DNA of 64,000 nt, taken from the NCBI RefSeq assembly GCF_011045215.1, contig NZ_CP049201.1; one strand, written 5' to 3'. The stretch comes from Escherichia coli. GTDB lineage: Bacteria > Pseudomonadota > Gammaproteobacteria > Enterobacterales > Enterobacteriaceae. Every line of letters begins with the position of its first letter. Position 1 is the first letter of the stretch. Below, piece by piece: positions 16,688 through 27,386 of this stretch. The notes under the pieces were generated by a model. The model had not been told where the DNA came from. It saw only the letters and a program-made list of their open reading frames with translations, and searched no databases. Both the position numbers and the translations under genes were made by a program.

Positions 16688-16978
16688 GATTGTGCTCCTT
16701 TTGAAAGATGTCAGTAAAATTAACACACATTGTGAATGTCGTATGTCCGGTGATGCGTTTTTACGACAATAATGCCTACTTGAAATTGTAGATATTTGCA
16801 CTACACCCTTTTAAATAAAGCACCAACAAATCGTCAACTTGCAGAACATATTCTTCTGCCTACATACCATTAAGAAAACATCAAGTTTCCGACTTGCCAA
16901 TTTATTAATGCCCATTATAGACGCTGAAACAAGCCACGGACAAAGAAGATGCCAAAATTACCGGCGATGCAGAAAAAC

Positions 16979-17350
16979 TCAACGAACCAGGGCAAGATTA
17001 CGAAAGCCCGCTCCCGCAAGGACTGACGCCAGATAGTTTCTGTCCATGGCTGCTTTTCGCATCTTACGTCTTAACCCTGCCTTGAATACCTTATCATTCG
17101 TCAAAATATTAATAGCAATGTGCCGTATCCCTGAAAATAATTCTGCAGCATTTCCTCTTCTTATTTTGCAGTCGTCTTCATTCATTACCACGTCCAGACG
17201 CCAGTGCAGCTTATTCTCCACGTGCCAGTGGTTTCGGATTGCTGTGGCGAACTTCTCTGCGGTTAAATCAGCAGAACTGATATAATATCTGACCGTCATT
17301 TCTGGCTCTTTCTTTTGTTCTGCTATTATTGACCGAAAGGAGACTGCCAC
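16979..17350 (-). mobile_element. Truncated H-repeat-associated (ISAs1-family) transposase remnant, C-terminal 123 aa only
   Basis: [30 protein letters not shown] is the conserved C-terminal DDE region of H-rpt/ISAs1 transposases (K-12 ydcC/yncI lie at the equivalent place). The N-terminal two-thirds is missing. Confidence 0.7.
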
Positions 17351-17667
17351 GCATAATTTCTTCAGTCCTTTCCATTCAAACGTGAAATCAATAAGTTCAT
17401 CAGGGACATCGCAAACAATATGAAGACGGATTTCTTCTCTGCCGTGACTAAAATGCGAATTATTTAGTACAAAAAAAGCGGCGCACCTTGTTCTTTCCCA
17501 GATTCCTAATATGGCAACTTTAAGTTATCGCCGTCTATACTTATAGAAATTTCATCAGGGGTGACGTAAATAGAATTTTTTTCATCCTCAATTGCCCATA
17601 ACTGATTAATAAAAAAGTATTTTTTTCATCTAATAAAAAATTATCACATGTAGTAAAATTATTAATA

Positions 17668-18327
17668 TCAAAAAAAATCATCAGCACAATTAATTTTTAA
17701 ATTTAAAAAATAAAGAAAAATATTATTGATTGATTTGAGTGTAAACCACTTGTCATTAACAAATTTATAGCCAGATGATTTTATAAAATAATAATTATCT
17801 CCTGGTATAAAGGCATACATATCATTTAAGGTTATACTCAACAAAAAACTACGACCTGGTTTAATAGTATTCCACCGTTCAGGATTCGTATTAATTTCAA
17901 AAGGACATGAACCACCTAAGTAGTCCAACGTGATATTCCCAGAGTTGATTCTGAATGGTTTTTTGCATATCGCATCATATTCATCTCCTTTTCCATCTTT
18001 TACTTTCATAGGTAGATAATATTTAGAAAAAAAATACGTGGTAGAGCTATTGTTAGTAAAGGTTATGTTAGCAAAAATCCTGTTATTTTTTTTACTCATA
18101 GCTAATTGAGCATTGACATCCGCTATATAATTTATATGATTACATTTTTTCTTACACTCATCATAATTTTCGATAGGATAAATTAATGGCCTTCCTTTGA
18201 TATCTCTCTCAAGCCCAAACCCGTATTTTTTTATTAAAACCATTTCATCCGCAGTCGATTGAAAGGAATAGAAAAATATAATATTTACGATTGTCATTAT
18301 TATGATTTTTTTTATAGCTTGCAGCAT
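17668..18327 (-). CDS. Hypothetical exported protein (219 aa) with N-terminal signal peptide; AT-rich island ORF
   Basis: Hydrophobic N-terminus IIIMTIVNIIFFYSFQSTADE; strongly AT-rich; no family recognised. Confidence 0.45.
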   Translation of the reverse strand: MLQAIKKIIIMTIVNIIFFYSFQSTADEMVLIKKYGFGLERDIKGRPLIYPIENYDECKKKCNHINYIADVNAQLAMSKKNNRIFANITFTNNSSTTYFFSKYYLPMKVKDGKGDEYDAICKKPFRINSGNITLDYLGGSCPFEINTNPERWNTIKPGRSFLLSITLNDMYAFIPGDNYYFIKSSGYKFVNDKWFTLKSINNIFLYFLNLKINCADDFF

Positions 18328-18350
18328 TAATATATTTCTCGACTTATTAG

Positions 18351-18653
18351 TTAATGGAGAAGTGCTTTTTCTAATTCCGCTATTTTTTTCTTAACTGAAT
18401 TGCTTAATATTTCATCATTAATCGAGTCTATCTCACTTTCAATTAATCTTATTTCAAAATATCTTTCTATGTTATATGCATTCTCAAATATTTGATCTTT
18501 TTGTTTAGAGATCAGTTTAGTTGCAATACGGATATGTTCGTCATATGAAACTTCATCCTCTTTGCACGTTGAATATTTATCAGTAGTTGTATAATTCTGT
18601 GACCACATACCACCTTTTTTATTATCCCCATAATACCACTGAATATGAGACAT
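18351..18653 (-). CDS. Hypothetical small protein (100 aa), candidate immunity or accessory protein
   Basis: ATG at 18651-18653 with GGAAAGGA upstream; AT-rich; inside the VgrG island. Confidence 0.4.
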   Translation of the reverse strand: MSHIQWYYGDNKKGGMWSQNYTTTDKYSTCKEDEVSYDEHIRIATKLISKQKDQIFENAYNIERYFEIRLIESEIDSINDEILSNSVKKKIAELEKALLH

Positions 18654-18691
18654 TTCATGACATAAAGTAGCAACATGAGAATCCTTTCCCG

Positions 18692-19141
18692 TTACTGGAT
18701 TTTTTTGCCATCTCTATACTCAAATTTTGCGCCTATGTTAATTATATAGGGCATATCCTTACTTGGGCTGACGAATGCTGCAAATTCATTACAACCTGTA
18801 TAATTTATAAAACTGCTCATTGTTAAATCATTAGCTATAATCATTAATCTTCTCACACCATCCATCATAAGAAATCTAGCATTCATGCGCCTAACTGTAT
18901 TATGTCCATATTTTCTTATATTAACTTCCTTATTTCCTTTAACACCAAAGATCTTACTGAAATCATATTCCTCCTGTGCTCCCCATCTCAAAAGATCATC
19001 TGCTCTTTTTATCAAAACCAACTTTTGTGCCTTACGAACCTTATCAATCATTATTTTAAAATGATCAGTTATTTTTTGCTCTTTCACACATTCTTCTGGC
19101 TCTGGCTTTGGTTGTCCAGAAGTTTGATTATTATCGTCCAT
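18692..19141 (-). CDS. Hypothetical protein (149 aa from the ATG with an RBS; the longest ORF runs to 19198)
   Basis: GGAAGGA then ATG (MDDNNQTSGQ...) at 19141; AT-rich; no recognisable domain. Confidence 0.4.
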   Translation of the reverse strand: MDDNNQTSGQPKPEPEECVKEQKITDHFKIMIDKVRKAQKLVLIKRADDLLRWGAQEEYDFSKIFGVKGNKEVNIRKYGHNTVRRMNARFLMMDGVRRLMIIANDLTMSSFINYTGCNEFAAFVSPSKDMPYIINIGAKFEYRDGKKIQ

Positions 19142-19327
19142 AGTGTCCTTCCATTGAGAGAAAATCATCATTCGCAAATAGCAACTAAAAAGCAGCATTA
19201 CTTGACCTTTCCCTGCATAACAATATTTATAAAATAATACGTTTTATGATCTCACCTTGGGCTCCCAACAAGATAATTTCAGTTTTAAAGACTTTCACGA
19301 AAAAATATAGAAATACCTCACCACCCT

Positions 19328-19618
19328 TCACTTACCAATTAATCTCACAGGAAATCCAACTTCCTTACCACAAATACAATCCCAAGTAACATTTCCCAAA
19401 ATTTTTGATACTTTAGGCTGCAATGGCATTATTGACATTATAAATTTATCAAGTTCTTCGCTATATTTAATTCCCTTTATATTTCTTATTATTGATATTC
19501 TAGCAGTAAAGATAGCCGTCTCTCCATCTACACTAAAAGTGTAATTACAATTTTTTGTAATCTCATCAAATTCAACCGATAACAAATCAATATTATGGTT
19601 TGTAAACACTATGCCCAT
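19328..19618 (-). CDS. Putative cognate immunity protein (96 aa) for the upstream T6SS toxin
   Basis: Start overlaps the toxin stop by 26 nt, a typical toxin-immunity arrangement; small and AT-rich. Confidence 0.5.
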   Translation of the reverse strand: MGIVFTNHNIDLLSVEFDEITKNCNYTFSVDGETAIFTARISIIRNIKGIKYSEELDKFIMSIMPLQPKVSKILGNVTWDCICGKEVGFPVRLIGK

Positions 19619-21032
19619 TCCATACCTCCTTAAATTCCTGTTCAGTCATCAGATATCGACTCCCTTGATATGGATCATATATTATCACATTCCCAGCATC
19701 ATCAACACCCTTAACAAGTACCCAATGTCCTACTTTACTTCCAGAATCCCACATCATTGCTCCCCATGAACCAGTATTACTGAGGGCATATAAACTAGAT
19801 TCGCTCACTGCATTCCCTTCCCAGCCGACATCAAATTTATTAAGCTTGTTTGCCAGCGACGTCATAGATGTTAATTCTGTTCCAATTACATTTTGCGTGA
19901 CAAAAATATACCTATCCCTAAGCAACATTTCCCCACAGGCCGCTCCACAGCCTGTTAAAGTCAATTGCTTTATTACATTTGAATCTAAAACCTCATCAAA
20001 TACTGTCCAATTGCCACCAGCACCACCTTCTAAAACTACCGGCTCTACAAATACTTTCCCAGAGATATTTTCTTCTGGTATTTTTGCGGGTATCATAAAG
20101 CCCCATAAAAAGCTGGAAAAATGCTCCAGAGCAATCTGATCACCATTATTTGCATCCATTATCATTTTTTTAAGTGCATCCCATGCTTGCCCATTTATCA
20201 ATGAATCACTAATATTAAATAAAGCCTGTTCTTTTTCGTTTAAATTTATATTTGCCTGTTCACATAACCCATCTTCGCCTATCGGGCAAGCAACCGTTGC
20301 CGTTGCCGTATCTAACAGAGCATCGAATGTAACTAAGGCTAAATCCGCCACACCATGTAAAGTGGTGATTGCTCCATTCCCCATTTGAGTAAGTGTGTTC
20401 TCTCCAAACCATTCTCTAATTTGAGATTTATCTCCTTCAATACCATTCCTGAGAGATTCTCTGATATTCTTTATTGAAAAAAACTCCCCCCATGATTGGT
20501 CAGGATCTTTTATTTGGAATAAATCATTTTTAACCTCAGGTGAAATATCTCCGTCAAAAATATTACCAACAGAGAGGAGATCCTTCAGAAGCAGTAAATC
20601 GTGTATTACTTCAGCAGTCCTTTCATAATTAAAACTTCTATCAATGACAGAAATCATTGGTGATTTTATTTTGGTATATAATTTACCAAGGCAGTTATGG
20701 TTATTAATCCCAACAACTGAACCATGATAAGCAACAGGTTTCCCTTCTATTGTTACAGTCGGACTTCCCGTTAAAATAACACAGTCACCCGTTCCTTGAG
20801 ATGTACCGGATATGACACCTTTACCGGCATTACTTTGAGTTCCAGCAATCACTGAACCAACATTTAAAGCTCTGCATCCACGCGCCCATACCGTTGAACT
20901 GTACTGTCTTTCACTATCTAAAGTCTGGTAACTGTCAAAAGGAACCTTGTAACCTCCTACTTCACATACATCTGGTGAAGTACACACGACTCTAAATCTA
21001 GATTCACCATCCCCGATATGATAGTTACCCAT
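19593..21032 (-). CDS. T6SS polymorphic toxin: N-terminal PAAR-like (DUF4150-type) domain, C-terminal papain-like cysteine peptidase (C39-like) domain; 479 aa
   Basis: N-terminus VCTSPDVCEVGG...GSPTVTIEGKPVAYHGS resembles PAAR-like spike-capping domains. C-terminus has a CGAAC motif at residues 362-366 and GHWVLV...D...IYDP at 436-453, a Cys/His/Asp arrangement like peptidase C39 folds. Follows vgrG and the DUF2169-like gene. Confidence 0.6.
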   Translation of the reverse strand: MGNYHIGDGESRFRVVCTSPDVCEVGGYKVPFDSYQTLDSERQYSSTVWARGCRALNVGSVIAGTQSNAGKGVISGTSQGTGDCVILTGSPTVTIEGKPVAYHGSVVGINNHNCLGKLYTKIKSPMISVIDRSFNYERTAEVIHDLLLLKDLLSVGNIFDGDISPEVKNDLFQIKDPDQSWGEFFSIKNIRESLRNGIEGDKSQIREWFGENTLTQMGNGAITTLHGVADLALVTFDALLDTATATVACPIGEDGLCEQANINLNEKEQALFNISDSLINGQAWDALKKMIMDANNGDQIALEHFSSFLWGFMIPAKIPEENISGKVFVEPVVLEGGAGGNWTVFDEVLDSNVIKQLTLTGCGAACGEMLLRDRYIFVTQNVIGTELTSMTSLANKLNKFDVGWEGNAVSESSLYALSNTGSWGAMMWDSGSKVGHWVLVKGVDDAGNVIIYDPYQGSRYLMTEQEFKEVWNGHSVYKP

Positions 21033-22071
21033 AATATTTTTTCCCTATACATTCAGGAATAATACAACTCAGCACTCCTTCTTTCATTCCAAAAAAATCA
21101 GGTATTGTTAATCTCCAGGTAAGGTATATTTCCTGTCGACTTAAATCGATAACCATTGTATCCGCAACAGGTAAGAACATATGTGATGTATTATGCTTGG
21201 TTTTTAATATAAGTACAGGTCGTATACCTGGCAATTTTGTCTTAACAACCTGTTCAAATTTAAAAAAACCTTCAAGAGAGATGTTTTCATCGCCAGAGAG
21301 AAACCCCGTGTATATCATATCCGGATGAGCACTATTGTAGAACCGCTCATCAAAATCATCCGGCAAATAGGGATAGCGCTTTTCACGCCATACTTCATTG
21401 TAGGTTCCTGCATACTGGAGGCGACTTTTCCACCATCGAGATACAGGGCCAACACCTTGAAAAAAGTCAGATTCCCCATTAAAAATGGTAGCGTTTTCTG
21501 ACAAAGCAGAGCTGGTTATTTGTGGGAGTTTATATTGACAACTTGTATTAAGTTGGGAAATATCAGGATAATATCCACAACCTACAGGGTTTGCTGAAAA
21601 AACCAATTTCTCCATACCATCTGGTTGCCAAATACCACCGTAAGCAAGCTCATAGCGTAGAGGAATATTAATAATTTTATCTGGTAAGCTCATCTGCCAA
21701 CGATTTCGCTCATATTGTAAGTAGCGGACACCAGATAAACTCAGTTCTTTAGAAAAACTATTAACCCTCACACAAGCCTTCCACTGAGACTTATCCCCTG
21801 AAGGGGCATGAGCACTACCTGTCACGTGAATATCTGTATTTCTTTTACAAAGAACTAAGTCTGTTTCAGATTTTAGACTACTTGTTTCAGGCTCCCCATA
21901 GTATTCATCAGACATGGACAATTCTCTTTGAAATTCAGCAAGATCAGCATAAAATCCATTTTTAATTCGCAATGACATTTTAATAGCAATAACATCAAAC
22001 AAAAGACCATAACGACCATATTTTTCAAATGACAACAAAGGAAATGGCGTGTTATTTTTCATTTCTATCAT
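21025..22071 (-). CDS. DUF2169-like T6SS adaptor/chaperone protein (348 aa)
   Basis: Called mainly by context: lies between vgrG and a PAAR-like toxin, and its stop overlaps the toxin start by 8 nt (translational coupling). Confidence 0.5.
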   Translation of the reverse strand: MIEMKNNTPFPLLSFEKYGRYGLLFDVIAIKMSLRIKNGFYADLAEFQRELSMSDEYYGEPETSSLKSETDLVLCKRNTDIHVTGSAHAPSGDKSQWKACVRVNSFSKELSLSGVRYLQYERNRWQMSLPDKIINIPLRYELAYGGIWQPDGMEKLVFSANPVGCGYYPDISQLNTSCQYKLPQITSSALSENATIFNGESDFFQGVGPVSRWWKSRLQYAGTYNEVWREKRYPYLPDDFDERFYNSAHPDMIYTGFLSGDENISLEGFFKFEQVVKTKLPGIRPVLILKTKHNTSHMFLPVADTMVIDLSRQEIYLTWRLTIPDFFGMKEGVLSCIIPECIGKKYYG

Positions 22072-22177
22072 GCTTATTGATCCCTGAATAAGTCATGCTA
22101 TGATTAATTTAAACAATCACAAATGGTGATTCACAGGCGTATAAAGCAAATACAATCACCATGTTTTATATTCTGCA

Positions 22178-24160
22178 CTATCCGTTCAGATGAATATCTT
22201 TTCCTTTAATATCTACAGGACCGGTAGCCTCAAATAGAAACTCCGTCCCCCGTATTATTATCTTTCCTGTTTTCTCCAGTTTTATGGAACAAGTCCCGCT
22301 CTCTCCCTGCCCACAAATTAGCTCAATACTGTCCCCAGATATGATTTTTGTACCATGCTCAACTTTCAGTTCGTAATTATCACCTATTTTAATACTCTGT
22401 TTTTTGACGACTTCTTCGGTATCAGTTCCCGTCACCTTGCTTGTCTGGTTGTTATTCACAACCTTGTGCCGGTCATTTTTTATCGTGAGATGCTGATCGT
22501 TCGCTACCGTCACTTTCTGGTCATGACCACCTTCCTTTTTGCTCCCCACATTCACCGTCTGGCCCTTCACCACCGTTATCTTCTGGTTGTTACCGATGGT
22601 TTCCGTATGGTCATGTTTCACATCCGTTGTCCGGTCGTTGAGCACCTCCGTATCCATGTTCTTCTGGGCATGGATATACACCTGCTCATTACTGGTGGCG
22701 TCTTCAAACCGTAGCTCGTTAAATCCGCTTCCTTTATAGGTTTTTGACCGGATGGTCATCTGCGTCTTCGTTCCCGGCAGGTCGCCCGGGGAGCGGTTAT
22801 CTTCATGGTAGGTCCGTCCCGTGACGATGGGCTGGTCCGGGTCGCCGTTCAGGAAGTCAACAATCACCTCCTGGCCCACCCGCGGTATCGCCAGGTTACC
22901 GAACCCCGGCCCCGCCCACGCCTGCGATACCCGCACCCAGCATGAACTCGCCTCCGTCATCCCGTGATAACGGTCCCAGTGGAACTTCACCCGTACCCGG
23001 CCATGTTCGTCGCAGAATATCTCCTCACCCTTCGGCCCGGTCACAATGGCACTCTGCGGCCCGTCCACCTTCGGTTTGCTTTGCAGCCGTGGACGCCACG
23101 TCCGGTCTGCCGGTATCACCTCTAACTGATTTCCCAGCGTGGTTCCCCTCCCCTGGCTGCCGTGCAGCGCCTGCGGCTGGCTTCCTGACAGTATGCTCTG
23201 TACCACCTGCCATTCACGGTTCAGCATCTTCTGCGGATGCCCCGTCAGCGTAAACCGCGTTCCCGGCCACAGCTTCGGTGAATTACTCTGCCCTGTGGCC
23301 TTTTCCGCATCACTGCGCAGGCTGTCCATCTGGTACAGCGTGAAATCCTTGCCGTGCTGCTCATCCTTGAACCTTCCCGGATAATCAAATATCTCGTACT
23401 GCGCCAGCTGTCCGTTCAGGTTCTCACCCTGCTGCTCATACATCCCCGGCCAGTCCGGCACCTTAAACGTGTAATCCTGACTCTGCACCGACGACGGGCG
23501 GACATGCGCCTCATAACGGAACGTACTGAGACACTCCGTCTCCGCTCCTGCCGATGTGTCCGGGTTAAACGGAAGCTCTCCCGCCTGTGACAGCCCCGCC
23601 ACATCGTCGCACAGCGTCAGCTTCTGCTCCGGGCTGTCCGCCGCAAACCGCTCAAAGAAGAAAATCCCCTCCTCCGCCCACAGCCGCGCCAGAAACGCCA
23701 GGTCGCTCTCTCCGTACTGGACACAGAACTCCCGCGCCGGATGGTCTTCATAAAACAGCGGCGTCCACTCCGTGACGCCGTTCTCATTCAGTAACGTGGC
23801 CGATATCGTCCGGATATCCTGCTGCTGGAAGATACGGAAGTTCTGCCGCAGCCCGCACCGCCATAACGGCGGCTCAATACGCAGGTGATAACGCATCTGC
23901 CAGCCATTGTTCTCCTGCATGCCAAAACCCGCCACCACGCCGGTGACATAACGCAGCGGGATGACGCCCTGCCAGATGGTCAGCGTCGCCTTCTTCTCCA
24001 GCAGCATCTCCGCCGTCTGCATAAAAGAGTCGCTGGCAACATCCACACTCATCACAAACGGATATGACTGGTTCTGGATTAACCTGAAGCTCACCACTGC
24101 AAAGGTGTCCGGCTCCTGGCCGTCAACCTCCAGCGTAAAGCGCAGACCTTTTAAGGACAT
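22178..24160 (-). CDS. vgrG: Type VI secretion spike protein VgrG (660 aa)
   Basis: N-terminus MSLKGLRFTLEVDGQEPDTFAVVSFRLIQ and central gp27/gp5-like regions (IFDYPGRF, HWDRYHG, VGQEVIVDFLNGDPDQPIVTGRTYH) are hallmark VgrG motifs. The C-terminal third is AT-rich and repetitive. Confidence 0.88.
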   Translation of the reverse strand: MSLKGLRFTLEVDGQEPDTFAVVSFRLIQNQSYPFVMSVDVASDSFMQTAEMLLEKKATLTIWQGVIPLRYVTGVVAGFGMQENNGWQMRYHLRIEPPLWRCGLRQNFRIFQQQDIRTISATLLNENGVTEWTPLFYEDHPAREFCVQYGESDLAFLARLWAEEGIFFFERFAADSPEQKLTLCDDVAGLSQAGELPFNPDTSAGAETECLSTFRYEAHVRPSSVQSQDYTFKVPDWPGMYEQQGENLNGQLAQYEIFDYPGRFKDEQHGKDFTLYQMDSLRSDAEKATGQSNSPKLWPGTRFTLTGHPQKMLNREWQVVQSILSGSQPQALHGSQGRGTTLGNQLEVIPADRTWRPRLQSKPKVDGPQSAIVTGPKGEEIFCDEHGRVRVKFHWDRYHGMTEASSCWVRVSQAWAGPGFGNLAIPRVGQEVIVDFLNGDPDQPIVTGRTYHEDNRSPGDLPGTKTQMTIRSKTYKGSGFNELRFEDATSNEQVYIHAQKNMDTEVLNDRTTDVKHDHTETIGNNQKITVVKGQTVNVGSKKEGGHDQKVTVANDQHLTIKNDRHKVVNNNQTSKVTGTDTEEVVKKQSIKIGDNYELKVEHGTKIISGDSIELICGQGESGTCSIKLEKTGKIIIRGTEFLFEATGPVDIKGKDIHLNG

Positions 24161-24178
24161 AAATACCTCTCAGACATA

Positions 24179-24463
24179 TCAGCCTATATTTACCGTACCG
24201 CCACCAATGACCACGCCGCCGCAGTCAACAGCATCACCGCTTCTGGCGGCGGGCAGGCCGTCAATAAAGACGGTTGAAGAACCTCTGGCGATTTTACGGG
24301 GATGAGGGGGATGCTTCGGTTTAGCATGCGGCGTCAGCGGATCTCCCTGACGGGCTGCGGGGAGACCATCGATAAAAACGGTGGATGACCCGGCGGTGAT
24401 GACGGTCTCGTAATAACCGTCGTGCTGAGTGCCTTTGTCGGTGAGTTTGGCTGCTAAAGGCAT
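24179..24463 (-). CDS. PAAR-repeat protein (T6SS spike tip), 94 aa
   Basis: Two copies of SSTVFIDGLPAAR(Q/S)GD plus an N-terminal AAKLTD motif; 18 nt upstream of vgrG on the same strand. Confidence 0.75.
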   Translation of the reverse strand: MPLAAKLTDKGTQHDGYYETVITAGSSTVFIDGLPAARQGDPLTPHAKPKHPPHPRKIARGSSTVFIDGLPAARSGDAVDCGGVVIGGGTVNIG

Positions 24464-25002
24464 AATTTCTCCTGTTCAGAATTTCTACAGCAGCAGGTTT
24501 CAAAAATCCGGAGAAATATTCAACGAAATATTAATCACTTCACCGGATATTCTGATACGTACCTTCACTGGTCTATTTAAGTAATACAAATTGTTGGCGT
24601 GTATTAAGTTCCATTTTGTTCTCCTTAATTATGTAAGGAGTATTTGATCATGTATAAGCAATAAAAACAGCTTCAGGAAATAAGGAATATCGCAATTTTT
24701 AAACATAAAATGCGAATCGTTCAATACAAAAAAGCAGCGTTGCGTAATCTTTCCCTGATTAAATACGCTACCGCCCTACCCTGATGACATGATCTGCACT
24801 GCACTATCATATCGACATGTTTCTCTACATGCGAAAAGATGTTTTATTTTCGGATTATATTAAATTGACATTTCATATAAAAAACGAAATTACATCAATC
24901 ATATAAATAATTGTACCAACTTTAATTACTATTCATAGCAAACAAATGGATATCCAGTTAACTACGCCAGTGATTCATTAACATTAACCTCCGGCATTAT
25001 TG

Positions 25003-25620
25003 TTAAATAATGACATTCCTTTTTAATACTTCTTGTAATTTCGGTAACTGACATACTGCATCAGCAATCGCACTGATATTCGTGGCATTATCCTGAAACC
25101 ATTCATGCCCAGGCCCCCATGTGCGCATAGTGCAAAGATAACAGTCCACCAGCGTTAGTTGCTCACCAAACGCATAAGGTTCAGCGGTCAATTGTGAATT
25201 CAGCCAGATATAAAGCGATTTACGATATTCAATAACATTCTTCTTTAACTGTTCAGGTGCGTCAGATGCCCAACGCTCAGGGTAATCGGCGAAAGTGAAT
25301 GTTGGATAGACATTAGCAACCAGCCAGACCAATAGCCGTTGAAACTGCTGACGTTCGGCGCGCCCAACCGGTGGCGCAAGGTCCGGGCGACGATCGAGAA
25401 CCATCAATGCAATCGCCGCTGTCTCCGTCATAATCTCGTCATTTTCCAGAGCCAGTGTCGGAACCTGACACAACGGGTTCAGGGTTTTCAATAACTCGCG
25501 TGAAGTTCCCTCGTGGTCAAAACCACTGACATCAACGAACTGATAAGGAATATCAGCTAGTGTTAGCATCAGCTCACTGATTGTAGAGCCCCATCCGGGT
25601 ACGCCATACACCTTAATCAT
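25003..25620 (-). CDS. yncG: Glutathione S-transferase homolog YncG
   Basis: 205 aa, MIKVYGVPGWGSTISELMLTLADIPYQFVDV (GST N-terminal fold). Confidence 0.85.
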   Translation of the reverse strand: MIKVYGVPGWGSTISELMLTLADIPYQFVDVSGFDHEGTSRELLKTLNPLCQVPTLALENDEIMTETAAIALMVLDRRPDLAPPVGRAERQQFQRLLVWLVANVYPTFTFADYPERWASDAPEQLKKNVIEYRKSLYIWLNSQLTAEPYAFGEQLTLVDCYLCTMRTWGPGHEWFQDNATNISAIADAVCQLPKLQEVLKRNVII

Positions 25621-25886
25621 ATGCCCCTCACAATCTTTTAAAGATTAAGTGTAGGACAGTACACAGGTTAACCAGCAAAAGGATTTGTCATTTTTTCGTC
25701 AGTTGTATTGATCCCCTTCAGGATTGTAAGGGGATGTTTTGCATCGTTTATCGATAACGGGTAGGATGCTGCGCCGATAGTTTTATACCCATAAAGAATA
25801 ATGGTGATAACTATCATCGCCAGGATGAATAAACATTGTTCATGGCAACTTATATGACTTTTTCATTAAAGCAATCAGGGAGAGCA

Positions 25887-27386
25887 ATGAGTAAACACGA
25901 CACCGACACTTCAGATCAACACGCCGCGAAACGCCGCTGGCTTAATGCCCACGAAGAGGGGTATCACAAAGCGATGGGCAATCGCCAGGTGCAGATGATC
26001 GCCATTGGCGGCGCGATTGGTACGGGTTTGTTTTTAGGCGCAGGAGCCCGACTGCAAATGGCGGGGCCAGCACTGGCATTGGTCTATTTGATCTGCGGCC
26101 TGTTTTCATTTTTTATTCTGCGTGCATTGGGTGAGCTGGTGTTACACCGCCCTTCCAGTGGCAGTTTTGTCTCTTATGCCCGCGAGTTTTTGGGTGAGAA
26201 AGCCGCTTATGTTGCGGGCTGGATGTACTTCATCAACTGGGCGATGACGGGGATTGTCGATATCACCGCCGTCGCTCTGTATATGCATTACTGGGGTGCG
26301 TTTGGCGGCGTGCCGCAGTGGGTCTTTGCGCTCGCTGCACTTACCATCGTTGGCACCATGAATATGATCGGTGTGAAATGGTTTGCGGAGATGGAGTTCT
26401 GGTTTGCGCTTATTAAAGTGCTCGCCATTGTGACCTTTTTGGTCGTGGGTACAGTGTTCCTCGGTAGTGGTCAGCCGCTGGATGGCAACACCACTGGCTT
26501 TCATTTAATCACCGATAATGGCGGCTTCTTCCCCCACGGTTTGCTGCCTGCGCTGGTGTTGATTCAGGGCGTAGTGTTTGCTTTTGCCTCCATTGAAATG
26601 GTGGGTACAGCTGCCGGAGAATGTAAAGATCCGCAGACCATGGTGCCTAAAGCCATTAACAGTGTGATTTGGCGTATTGGCCTGTTTTACGTCGGCTCCG
26701 TGGTGTTGCTGGTTATGTTATTGCCGTGGAGCGCGTATCAGGCGGGGCAAAGTCCGTTCGTGACGTTTTTCTCTAAACTGGGTGTGCCATATATCGGCAG
26801 CATTATGAACATTGTGGTGCTGACCGCTGCCCTCTCCAGCCTGAACTCAGGCCTGTACTGCACCGGGCGTATTCTGCGCTCGATGGCGATGGGCGGTTCC
26901 GCACCGAGTTTTATGGCGAAAATGAGTCGTCAGCATGTGCCGTATGCCGGGATTCTGGCGACACTGGTTGTGTATGTCGTCGGCGTATTCCTCAACTATC
27001 TGGTGCCGTCGCGCGTATTTGAGATTGTGTTGAACTTCGCGTCGCTGGGAATCATCGCTTCATGGGCGTTTATCATCGTGTGCCAGATGCGCCTGCGTAA
27101 AGCGATTAAAGAAGGCAAAGCAGCGGATGTCAGTTTTAAACTGCCTGGCGCGCCCTTCACTTCCTGGCTGACATTACTGTTTTTACTGAGTGTCCTTGTG
27201 CTGATGGCGTTCGATTACCCGAACGGGACTTATACTATCGCGGCGCTGCCGATTATCGGTATTCTGCTGGTTATAGGCTGGTTTGGTGTGCGCAAACGCG
27301 TTGCTGAAATTCACAGCACTGCGCCAGTCGTCGAGGAAGATGAAGAAAAACAGGAAATCGTGTTTAAGCCTGAAACGGCGAGCTAA
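25887..27386 (+). CDS. ansP: L-asparagine permease AnsP (APC family)
   Basis: MSKHDTDTSDQHAAKRRWLNAHEEGYHKAMGNRQVQMIAIGGAIGTGLF; 499 aa from the ATG at 25887. Confidence 0.9.
   Translation: MSKHDTDTSDQHAAKRRWLNAHEEGYHKAMGNRQVQMIAIGGAIGTGLFLGAGARLQMAGPALALVYLICGLFSFFILRALGELVLHRPSSGSFVSYAREFLGEKAAYVAGWMYFINWAMTGIVDITAVALYMHYWGAFGGVPQWVFALAALTIVGTMNMIGVKWFAEMEFWFALIKVLAIVTFLVVGTVFLGSGQPLDGNTTGFHLITDNGGFFPHGLLPALVLIQGVVFAFASIEMVGTAAGECKDPQTMVPKAINSVIWRIGLFYVGSVVLLVMLLPWSAYQAGQSPFVTFFSKLGVPYIGSIMNIVVLTAALSSLNSGLYCTGRILRSMAMGGSAPSFMAKMSRQHVPYAGILATLVVYVVGVFLNYLVPSRVFEIVLNFASLGIIASWAFIIVCQMRLRKAIKEGKAADVSFKLPGAPFTSWLTLLFLLSVLVLMAFDYPNGTYTIAALPIIGILLVIGWFGVRKRVAEIHSTAPVVEEDEEKQEIVFKPETAS

Follow-up and report, generated by a model that had tools for sequence, protein, structure and literature searches.

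The closest described counterpart of the locus analyzed here is the c1882-c1889 region of Escherichia coli CFT073, which its authors concluded to be a cryptic RfaH-regulated locus where H-NS-StpA represses initiation (Hustmyer et al., 2022, mBio, PMC9765446). Data set S2 of that study places the ops element GGCGGTAGCGTA 312 bp upstream of c1882, at 1715753-1715764; this site is one of eight in CFT073 that load RfaH. The RfaH ChIP signal spans c1882-c1888, is seen only in a delta-hns delta-stpA mutant and is gone in delta-rfaH; ChIP of sigma70 gives a peak upstream of c1882 in delta-hns delta-stpA only, and H-NS occupies c1880, c1884-c1889 and the promoter region of c1882 (PMC9765446). For type VI secretion systems (T6SS) more broadly, mutagenesis of the EAEC sci1 core cluster has shown that ops and RfaH are required for its transcription (Taillefer et al., 2025, bioRxiv 10.1101/2025.02.08.637259)—though in that system ops1 and ops2 lie inside the core cluster (hcp-clpV intergenic region), whereas the ops considered here heads an orphan spike/effector island. 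In the classical ops/JUMPstart leaders (rfa (waaQ), rfb/wzx, kps, hly, and tra), the ops likewise occupies the non-template strand within a 5' leader and, as proposed here, precedes a long, horizontally acquired, H-NS-bound operon. The ops/RfaH site and H-NS silencing have been published for the CFT073 locus and are thus already known. What we add are small, previously unreported details: an insertion sequence (IS) scar, an AGTGC repeat and a strand-specific hairpin, all found in our leader and not described in the CFT073 paper (PMC9765446), and an ops block common to orphan vgrG islands.

The 64-kb stretch of E. coli DNA that we analyzed (hereafter the window) is oriented in reverse relative to K-12. 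On its minus strand, yncG (25003..25620; GST family by Pfam) is followed by a PAAR gene (24179..24463; PF05488, E 5e-21; Shine-Dalgarno AGGAG at 24473-24469) that is the first gene of the operon, then by vgrG (22178..24160; Phage_GPD, Gp5_trimer_C and Phage_base_V) and, by domain call, a DUF2169 adaptor (21025-22071) and a Tox-PAAR-like/peptidase C39-like effector (19593-21032). Positions 24464-25002 are therefore exactly the 539-bp gap between yncG and PAAR. At 32.5% GC, this leader is well below the 47.8% of the whole window, and just 3.9% of windows of 539 bp reach its AT content; low GC also marks the cargo region (17158-22491). An earlier note on this DNA had described the interval as an AT-rich leader of about 0.5 kb upstream of PAAR-vgrG that holds no operon-strand open reading frame (ORF) of 60 aa or more, a description that stands: ORFs wholly inside the interval reach at most 31 aa on the minus strand and 29 aa on the plus strand, and one mechanical 60-aa TTG ORF (24321..24503, minus strand) starts in the leader and crosses the PAAR gene in another reading frame. 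The leader is a three-part mosaic on the minus strand, comprising the yncG-proximal segment A (25002-24763; GC 0.325), the IS remnant of segment B (24762-24604; GC 0.302) and the PAAR-proximal segment C (24603-24464; GC 0.350). Segment A is specific to this leader type, and the complete 539-bp leader is present in 686 of the 5426 complete E. coli genomes surveyed.

This leader is colinear with the yncG-c1882 interval of CFT073 (L004:2527-3066) and about 98% identical to it (A 99.2%, B 96.3%, C 98.6%). The two loci share the chromosomal site (ansP-yncG ... pptA) and an identical ops 12-mer, placed 312 bp before a 285-bp PAAR gene that is followed by vgrG (tssI). They differ in the cargo past vgrG (i.e., DUF2169 plus the Tox-PAAR-like effector in the window, DUF4123 plus a second PAAR-vgrG module in CFT073) and in yncG, which is intact in the window and a pseudogene in CFT073. 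More widely, yncG is frameshifted or a pseudogene by annotation in CFT073, N24, DETEC-E1005, MS20657 and RIVM_C037884 (L004 1908-2526; L005 2382-3000; L006 2400-3000; L016 1-248), and the window, A30 and CB6886 have it as an intact 205-aa ORF.

Because H-NS, sigma70 and RfaH data exist for this near-identical CFT073 leader, we read the interval as a promoter region silenced by H-NS with an RfaH-loading site downstream of it, and we consider it likely, with some reservation, that it forms the 5' leader of a PAAR-vgrG-DUF2169-effector operon that is silenced by H-NS and depends on RfaH. The earlier suggestions that the region carries the island promoter and is a target of nucleoid-protein silencing thereby gain support by analogy from the colinear leader, including through the check that had been proposed for them (H-NS ChIP of the homologous locus), since CFT073 shows H-NS binding at the c1880-c1882 region (PMC9765446). 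As we picture it, transcription would start within the 228 bp that separate the yncG stop from the ops, at a sigma70 promoter, or would arrive by read-through from yncG, and H-NS/StpA filaments on this 32.5%-GC DNA would normally repress that initiation. When polymerase exposes the non-template ops (24775-24764), RfaH would bind and displace NusG. The RfaH-modified polymerase, resistant to Rho, pausing and H-NS roadblocks, could then pass the IS remnant and the terminator-like hairpin of the 312-nt untranslated leader and continue through the AT-rich cargo genes; any effect on expression in the present strain is likewise an inference.

The element on which this reading turns, GGCGGTAGCGTA (24764..24775, minus strand), is on the same strand as PAAR and vgrG, i.e., the non-template (coding) strand of the operon. 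It is intergenic, 228 nt past the yncG stop and 312 nt before the PAAR ATG, with candidate promoters upstream, and it matches GGCGGTAGCGTG at 11/12 positions. Against the 12-nt consensus GGCGGTAGnnTG its GGTAGnnT core is intact and only the final G is changed (G12 to A). It is the sole match with at most one mismatch in the 64-kb window, where 0.23 would be expected, and the 12-mer is invariant across six strains with variable flanks. The A at position 12 should weaken the pause and counts against RfaH loading, yet the kps ops of CFT073 also ends in A and is RfaH-bound in wild type (PMC9765446).

The ops is also the 3' end of a JUMPstart-like block (CAGTGCA-N18-GGGCGGTAGCGTA; 24764..24801, minus strand), and the Rfam JUMPstart model (RF01707) selects the same site as the motif search. 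This match is sub-threshold (19.7 bits and E 0.029 in 161 bp, against a gathering score of 35 bits), and its alignment covers the two end blocks only, the 5' one overlapping the AGTGC repeat. The 18-nt spacer is unrelated to the consensus, unlike in classical JUMPstart leaders, and an IS fragment directly follows the ops, unlike in classical ops leaders. The corresponding Rfam match in CFT073 (L004 2728-2765) ends exactly at the published ops coordinates. At permissive Rfam thresholds, positions 24000-25900 returned no other RNA family. The pentanucleotide repeat itself, (AGTGC)2 at 24796..24805 on the minus strand, sits between the candidate -10 TATGAT and the ops and varies between strains, with two copies in the window, five in N24 (L005) and 11 (11.4) in MS20657 (L016 446-502); its copy number could shift the start-to-ops distance or the 5' end of the transcript.

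Two candidate sigma70 promoters lie on the minus strand upstream of the ops. P1 (TTTATA-16-TATAAT, 10/12; 24854..24881) is ~72 nt upstream of it, and both of its hexamers are invariant in six strains; P2 (TTCGCA-18-TATGAT, 9/12 by consensus scan; 24806..24835) would start transcription ~25 nt upstream of the ops and has its -10 within the block common to other vgrG leaders. Promoter prediction, a check proposed in the earlier note, thus delivered candidates but no fixed position: the leader holds four promoter-like sites against 3.3 +/- 1.7 in shuffles, and with no excess over shuffles a consensus scan cannot place the promoter. No intrinsic terminator is predicted between yncG and the ops, so read-through from yncG is possible. 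The H-NS high-affinity 10-mer TCGATAAATT has no leader match at two or fewer mismatches against 1.6 per kb window-wide, so the motif scan is not informative. A classic Rho-loading site would be C-rich and G-poor, which the leader transcript is not.

Several of these observations count against the RfaH model, namely the composition of the transcript, the sub-threshold JUMPstart score and promoter matches that do not exceed those in shuffles. The good Shine-Dalgarno sequence of PAAR, unlike many RfaH targets, also counts against it, as does the limitation of RfaH occupancy at the CFT073 locus to the delta-hns delta-stpA mutant. The lack of visible RfaH in wild-type cells sets this leader apart from classical ops leaders, a difference that we attribute to a silenced promoter.

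The ops block extends well beyond this leader type. With an 88-bp query it is found in 4516 of the 5426 complete genomes (83%), at a median of two places per genome. At the cusS place, the block carries the variant AGCGGTAGCATA (L008/L009 5001-5053) and lies 335 bp upstream of a vgrG-DcrB-Rhs island that is absent from CFT073; upstream of the K-12 rhsE pseudogene, it carries GGCGGTAGCGTA (L001 4578-4614). The cusS-vgrG and K-12 rhsE' leaders share ~88% identity over roughly 420 bp, and their common ~430-bp leader occurs in 3759 of 5426 genomes (median two places), where it typically enters an annotated vgrG, or an Rhs remnant in K-12-type strains. As in the window, an ops block (~37-52 bp in these two leaders) precedes the first island gene, about 280-335 bp before vgrG or the rhsE' remnant, but both leaders are without the IS remnant, the PAAR gene and the segment-C hairpin, and their flanks are unrelated to those of the window. 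The ~50-bp ops block is the only sequence common to the window leader and the yncH-vgrG/rhsE and cusS-vgrG leaders, and it is 83-95% identical across these three otherwise unrelated leaders.

A contig scan with CATGNNATCAGGGNNNNGCGGTAGC for spread outside Escherichia gave chance matches and one "Citrobacter sp." MAG contig. This contig (DXKH01000108.1; L012, 7.9 kb) carries a yncG-leader-ansP locus with ~93% identity to the window and is probably a wrongly binned Escherichia contig. In the sequence that carries the cusS-adjacent block (L008), the cusF-cusC intergenic region (866-985) gave a sub-threshold match to "Vibrio RNA AS5" (44.5 bits against a 96-bit gathering score), which we judge from its sequence to be an ERIC/IRU-type repeat and not Vibrio RNA AS5.

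The earlier note had missed, besides the ops, the IS remnant and the strand-specific terminator-like hairpin. Segment B (24604..24762, minus strand) makes up ~30% of the interval and is what remains, over 154-159 bp, of the left end of an ISAs1-family element (ISEc1/H-repeat, ydcC type). Still present are the terminal repeat (CAGGGAAAGAT from 24757), the 5' UTR and, of the transposase ORF, its first 11 nt. The upstream ends of ISAs1/ISEc1 transposase genes annotated in >5000 genomes match this remnant at 85-94% identity, and the K-12 ydcC upstream region matches it at 93.8%. Neither an intact DDE transposase gene nor a right end lies within 24604-24762, and with just 11 nt of the transposase ORF left the remnant is non-autonomous. 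On the minus strand it contributes a hairpin (CUCCUUA-N6-UAAGGAG; 24621..24640; -8.0 kcal/mol, z -5.6, 0/200 shuffles as stable) that is predicted to sequester the transposase Shine-Dalgarno sequence, and truncation of the transposase gene left a predicted 13-codon upstream ORF (MELNTRQQFVLLK and a stop; 24573..24614) that is conserved in six strains with one E2K change.

Related IS sequences occur elsewhere at these islands. At the distal end of the window island, beside the pptA side, lies an internally deleted ISEc1 copy (16987..17475, minus strand) that joins the 27 bp of its left end directly to its last ~460 bp, and ~210 bp absent from K-12 (16777-16986) separate it from the pptA-side flank. 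In strain A30, IS left-end fragments mark module junctions too (L002 18013-18147, 21962-22090). In RIVM_C037884 (L003 6230-6420), a different, full-length ISAs1-family element with the terminal sequence CAGGGAAAAAGCATG begins directly after the ops GCGTAT, in the same orientation as the window remnant, and is followed by an RHS core gene. Comparison of RIVM_C037884 with window positions 24757-24764 thus places the starts of two distinct ISAs1-type elements within ~5 bp, just past the ops, which could reflect either target preference or IS-IS replacement.

Segment C, the native 5' region next to PAAR, recurs in ECNB21-M121 (L015 26798-26937) ahead of a second PAAR-vgrG module, with ~215 bp and then an ISEc1 copy upstream of the segment, and from this arrangement the window leader looks like a deletion derivative of the order ops, ISEc1, 215 bp, C and PAAR. 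We had considered segment C as the right end of ISEc1 and rejected this, because C and the right end of K-12 ISEc1 are not homologous and because those ~215 bp separate the IS end from C in ECNB21-M121.

The strongest rival reading is that the interval is a recombination scar of AT-rich filler from IS insertion and deletion where a variable island ends, with the ops-like 12-mer a relic that has no physiological role and RfaH loading confined to the artificial delta-hns delta-stpA background. In favor of this are the share of the interval taken up by IS remnant, the joining of segment C to that remnant by deletion, the G12A change in the ops, the neighboring yncG pseudogene in several strains and the absence of an RfaH signal in wild-type CFT073. 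We nonetheless consider this reading unlikely: the ops is unchanged in six strains with varying flanks, its block is kept in three otherwise unrelated leaders and 83% of genomes, and RfaH does load at the CFT073 site once the promoter fires.

The remaining feature of segment C is a long imperfect hairpin (24492..24563, minus strand). It lies ~30 nt ahead of the PAAR ribosome-binding site, and its 3' arm ends in CCGGAUUUUUGA. The sense RNA folds at -25.3 kcal/mol (z -4.35, 0/200 shuffles) and the antisense at just -11.5, the weaker fold being due to seven G.U pairs in the sense hairpin. The stem is AU-rich as well as long, the predicted fold pairs the U-run, and a simple terminator consensus scan does not call the hairpin. 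We regard it as terminator- or attenuator-like, and it may act in termination; at >=96% identity, the segment C copies of all 687 genomes are too similar for a covariation test. The leader RNA as a whole folds somewhat better than shuffles (z -2.56).

This hairpin also bears on a second alternative, in which the main promoter lies downstream of the ops and transcription bypasses RfaH. Promoters are common at IS ends, and the scan lists TATACA-17-CATAAT (24656-24628), a candidate transposase promoter, within the remnant and oriented toward PAAR. The match is only 9/12, expected by chance in AT-rich DNA; the terminator-like hairpin lies downstream of this promoter as well; and the RfaH ChIP signal over c1882-c1888 in CFT073 needs transcription through the ops. 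A bypass promoter therefore seems improbable, more so than a scar.

A third alternative, that the ~50-bp block is itself a promoter (-35 TTATCA, 16 nt, -10 TATATT) whose spacer happens to contain ops-like bases, and not an RfaH site, arises from the other leaders, since TTATCA-16-TATATT is the sole sense-strand call in both the K-12 rhsE' and the cusS-vgrG leader, and we retain it there as a rival. For the window we think it very improbable. The corresponding hexamers are TCATCA and TATTTA (6/12, without the final T); because the IS starts right after GCGTAT, the -10 hexamer is destroyed and the site is not called. RfaH occupancy in CFT073 further argues that the block is transcribed.

We return to the RfaH-dependent leader as the preferred reading and turn to the coding capacity of the interval. 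The earlier note had placed the small K-12 gene yncH at this site and found it unrecognizable here. K-12 does carry the gene (b1455, 70 aa, DUF5445, 76 bp downstream of yncG), and alignment with K-12 yncH bears out its absence, giving neither protein nor DNA similarity. A tblastn search of YncH against the whole window returned only a chance match outside the leader (E 0.62), and the sole blastn match (word size 7) between the leader and the K-12 yncH region is the 37-bp ops block. DNA homology to K-12 ends at the yncG stop codon, beyond which the K-12 yncH-rhsE' interval shares only these 37 bp (24799-24763). The absence of yncH here is an allelic difference and part of a population dimorphism: of 5426 complete E. 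coli genomes, 3597 have the yncH-type segment and 836 the window type. That a hidden small protein or small RNA gene functionally replaces yncH is the least credible alternative: the interval has several 24-31-aa ORFs and the leader RNA fold noted above, but it has no YncH similarity and no Rfam family besides the JUMPstart match, its sole ORF with a strong Shine-Dalgarno sequence is the 13-codon product of transposase truncation, and coding signal is not measurable because every copy is at least 93% identical.

The conservation of the ops block invites a wider and more tentative proposal, which we consider possible, though somewhat short of probable. The ~50-bp block may be a portable entry module of three types of E. 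coli orphan T6SS spike/Rhs island—yncG-PAAR-vgrG, yncH-vgrG/rhsE (including the K-12 relic) and cusS-vgrG-Rhs—with RfaH as a common elongation switch that links these islands to the RfaH-dependent core T6SS clusters. Additions to the leader, e.g., (AGTGC)n in 2 to 11 copies, the IS-derived hairpin with its upstream ORF and the terminator-like hairpin, would then tune output, and ISAs1 elements would prefer the site after the ops. In the literature searched we found neither a link of RfaH to rhsE, yncH or these vgrG leaders (including JUMPstart together with Rhs) nor a statement that RfaH is a general regulator of orphan T6SS effector islands.

For annotation, the "empty" gap beside yncG would be a regulatory leader, with an ops site and an IS scar, and not a degraded yncH. 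For the biology of these islands, the RfaH-dependent leader would explain how AT-rich, H-NS-coated T6SS cargo comes to be expressed, i.e., initiation is de-repressed and polymerase is then bound by RfaH at the ops. If the block is functional at its other places too, orphan T6SS effector islands would in general be regulated by RfaH.
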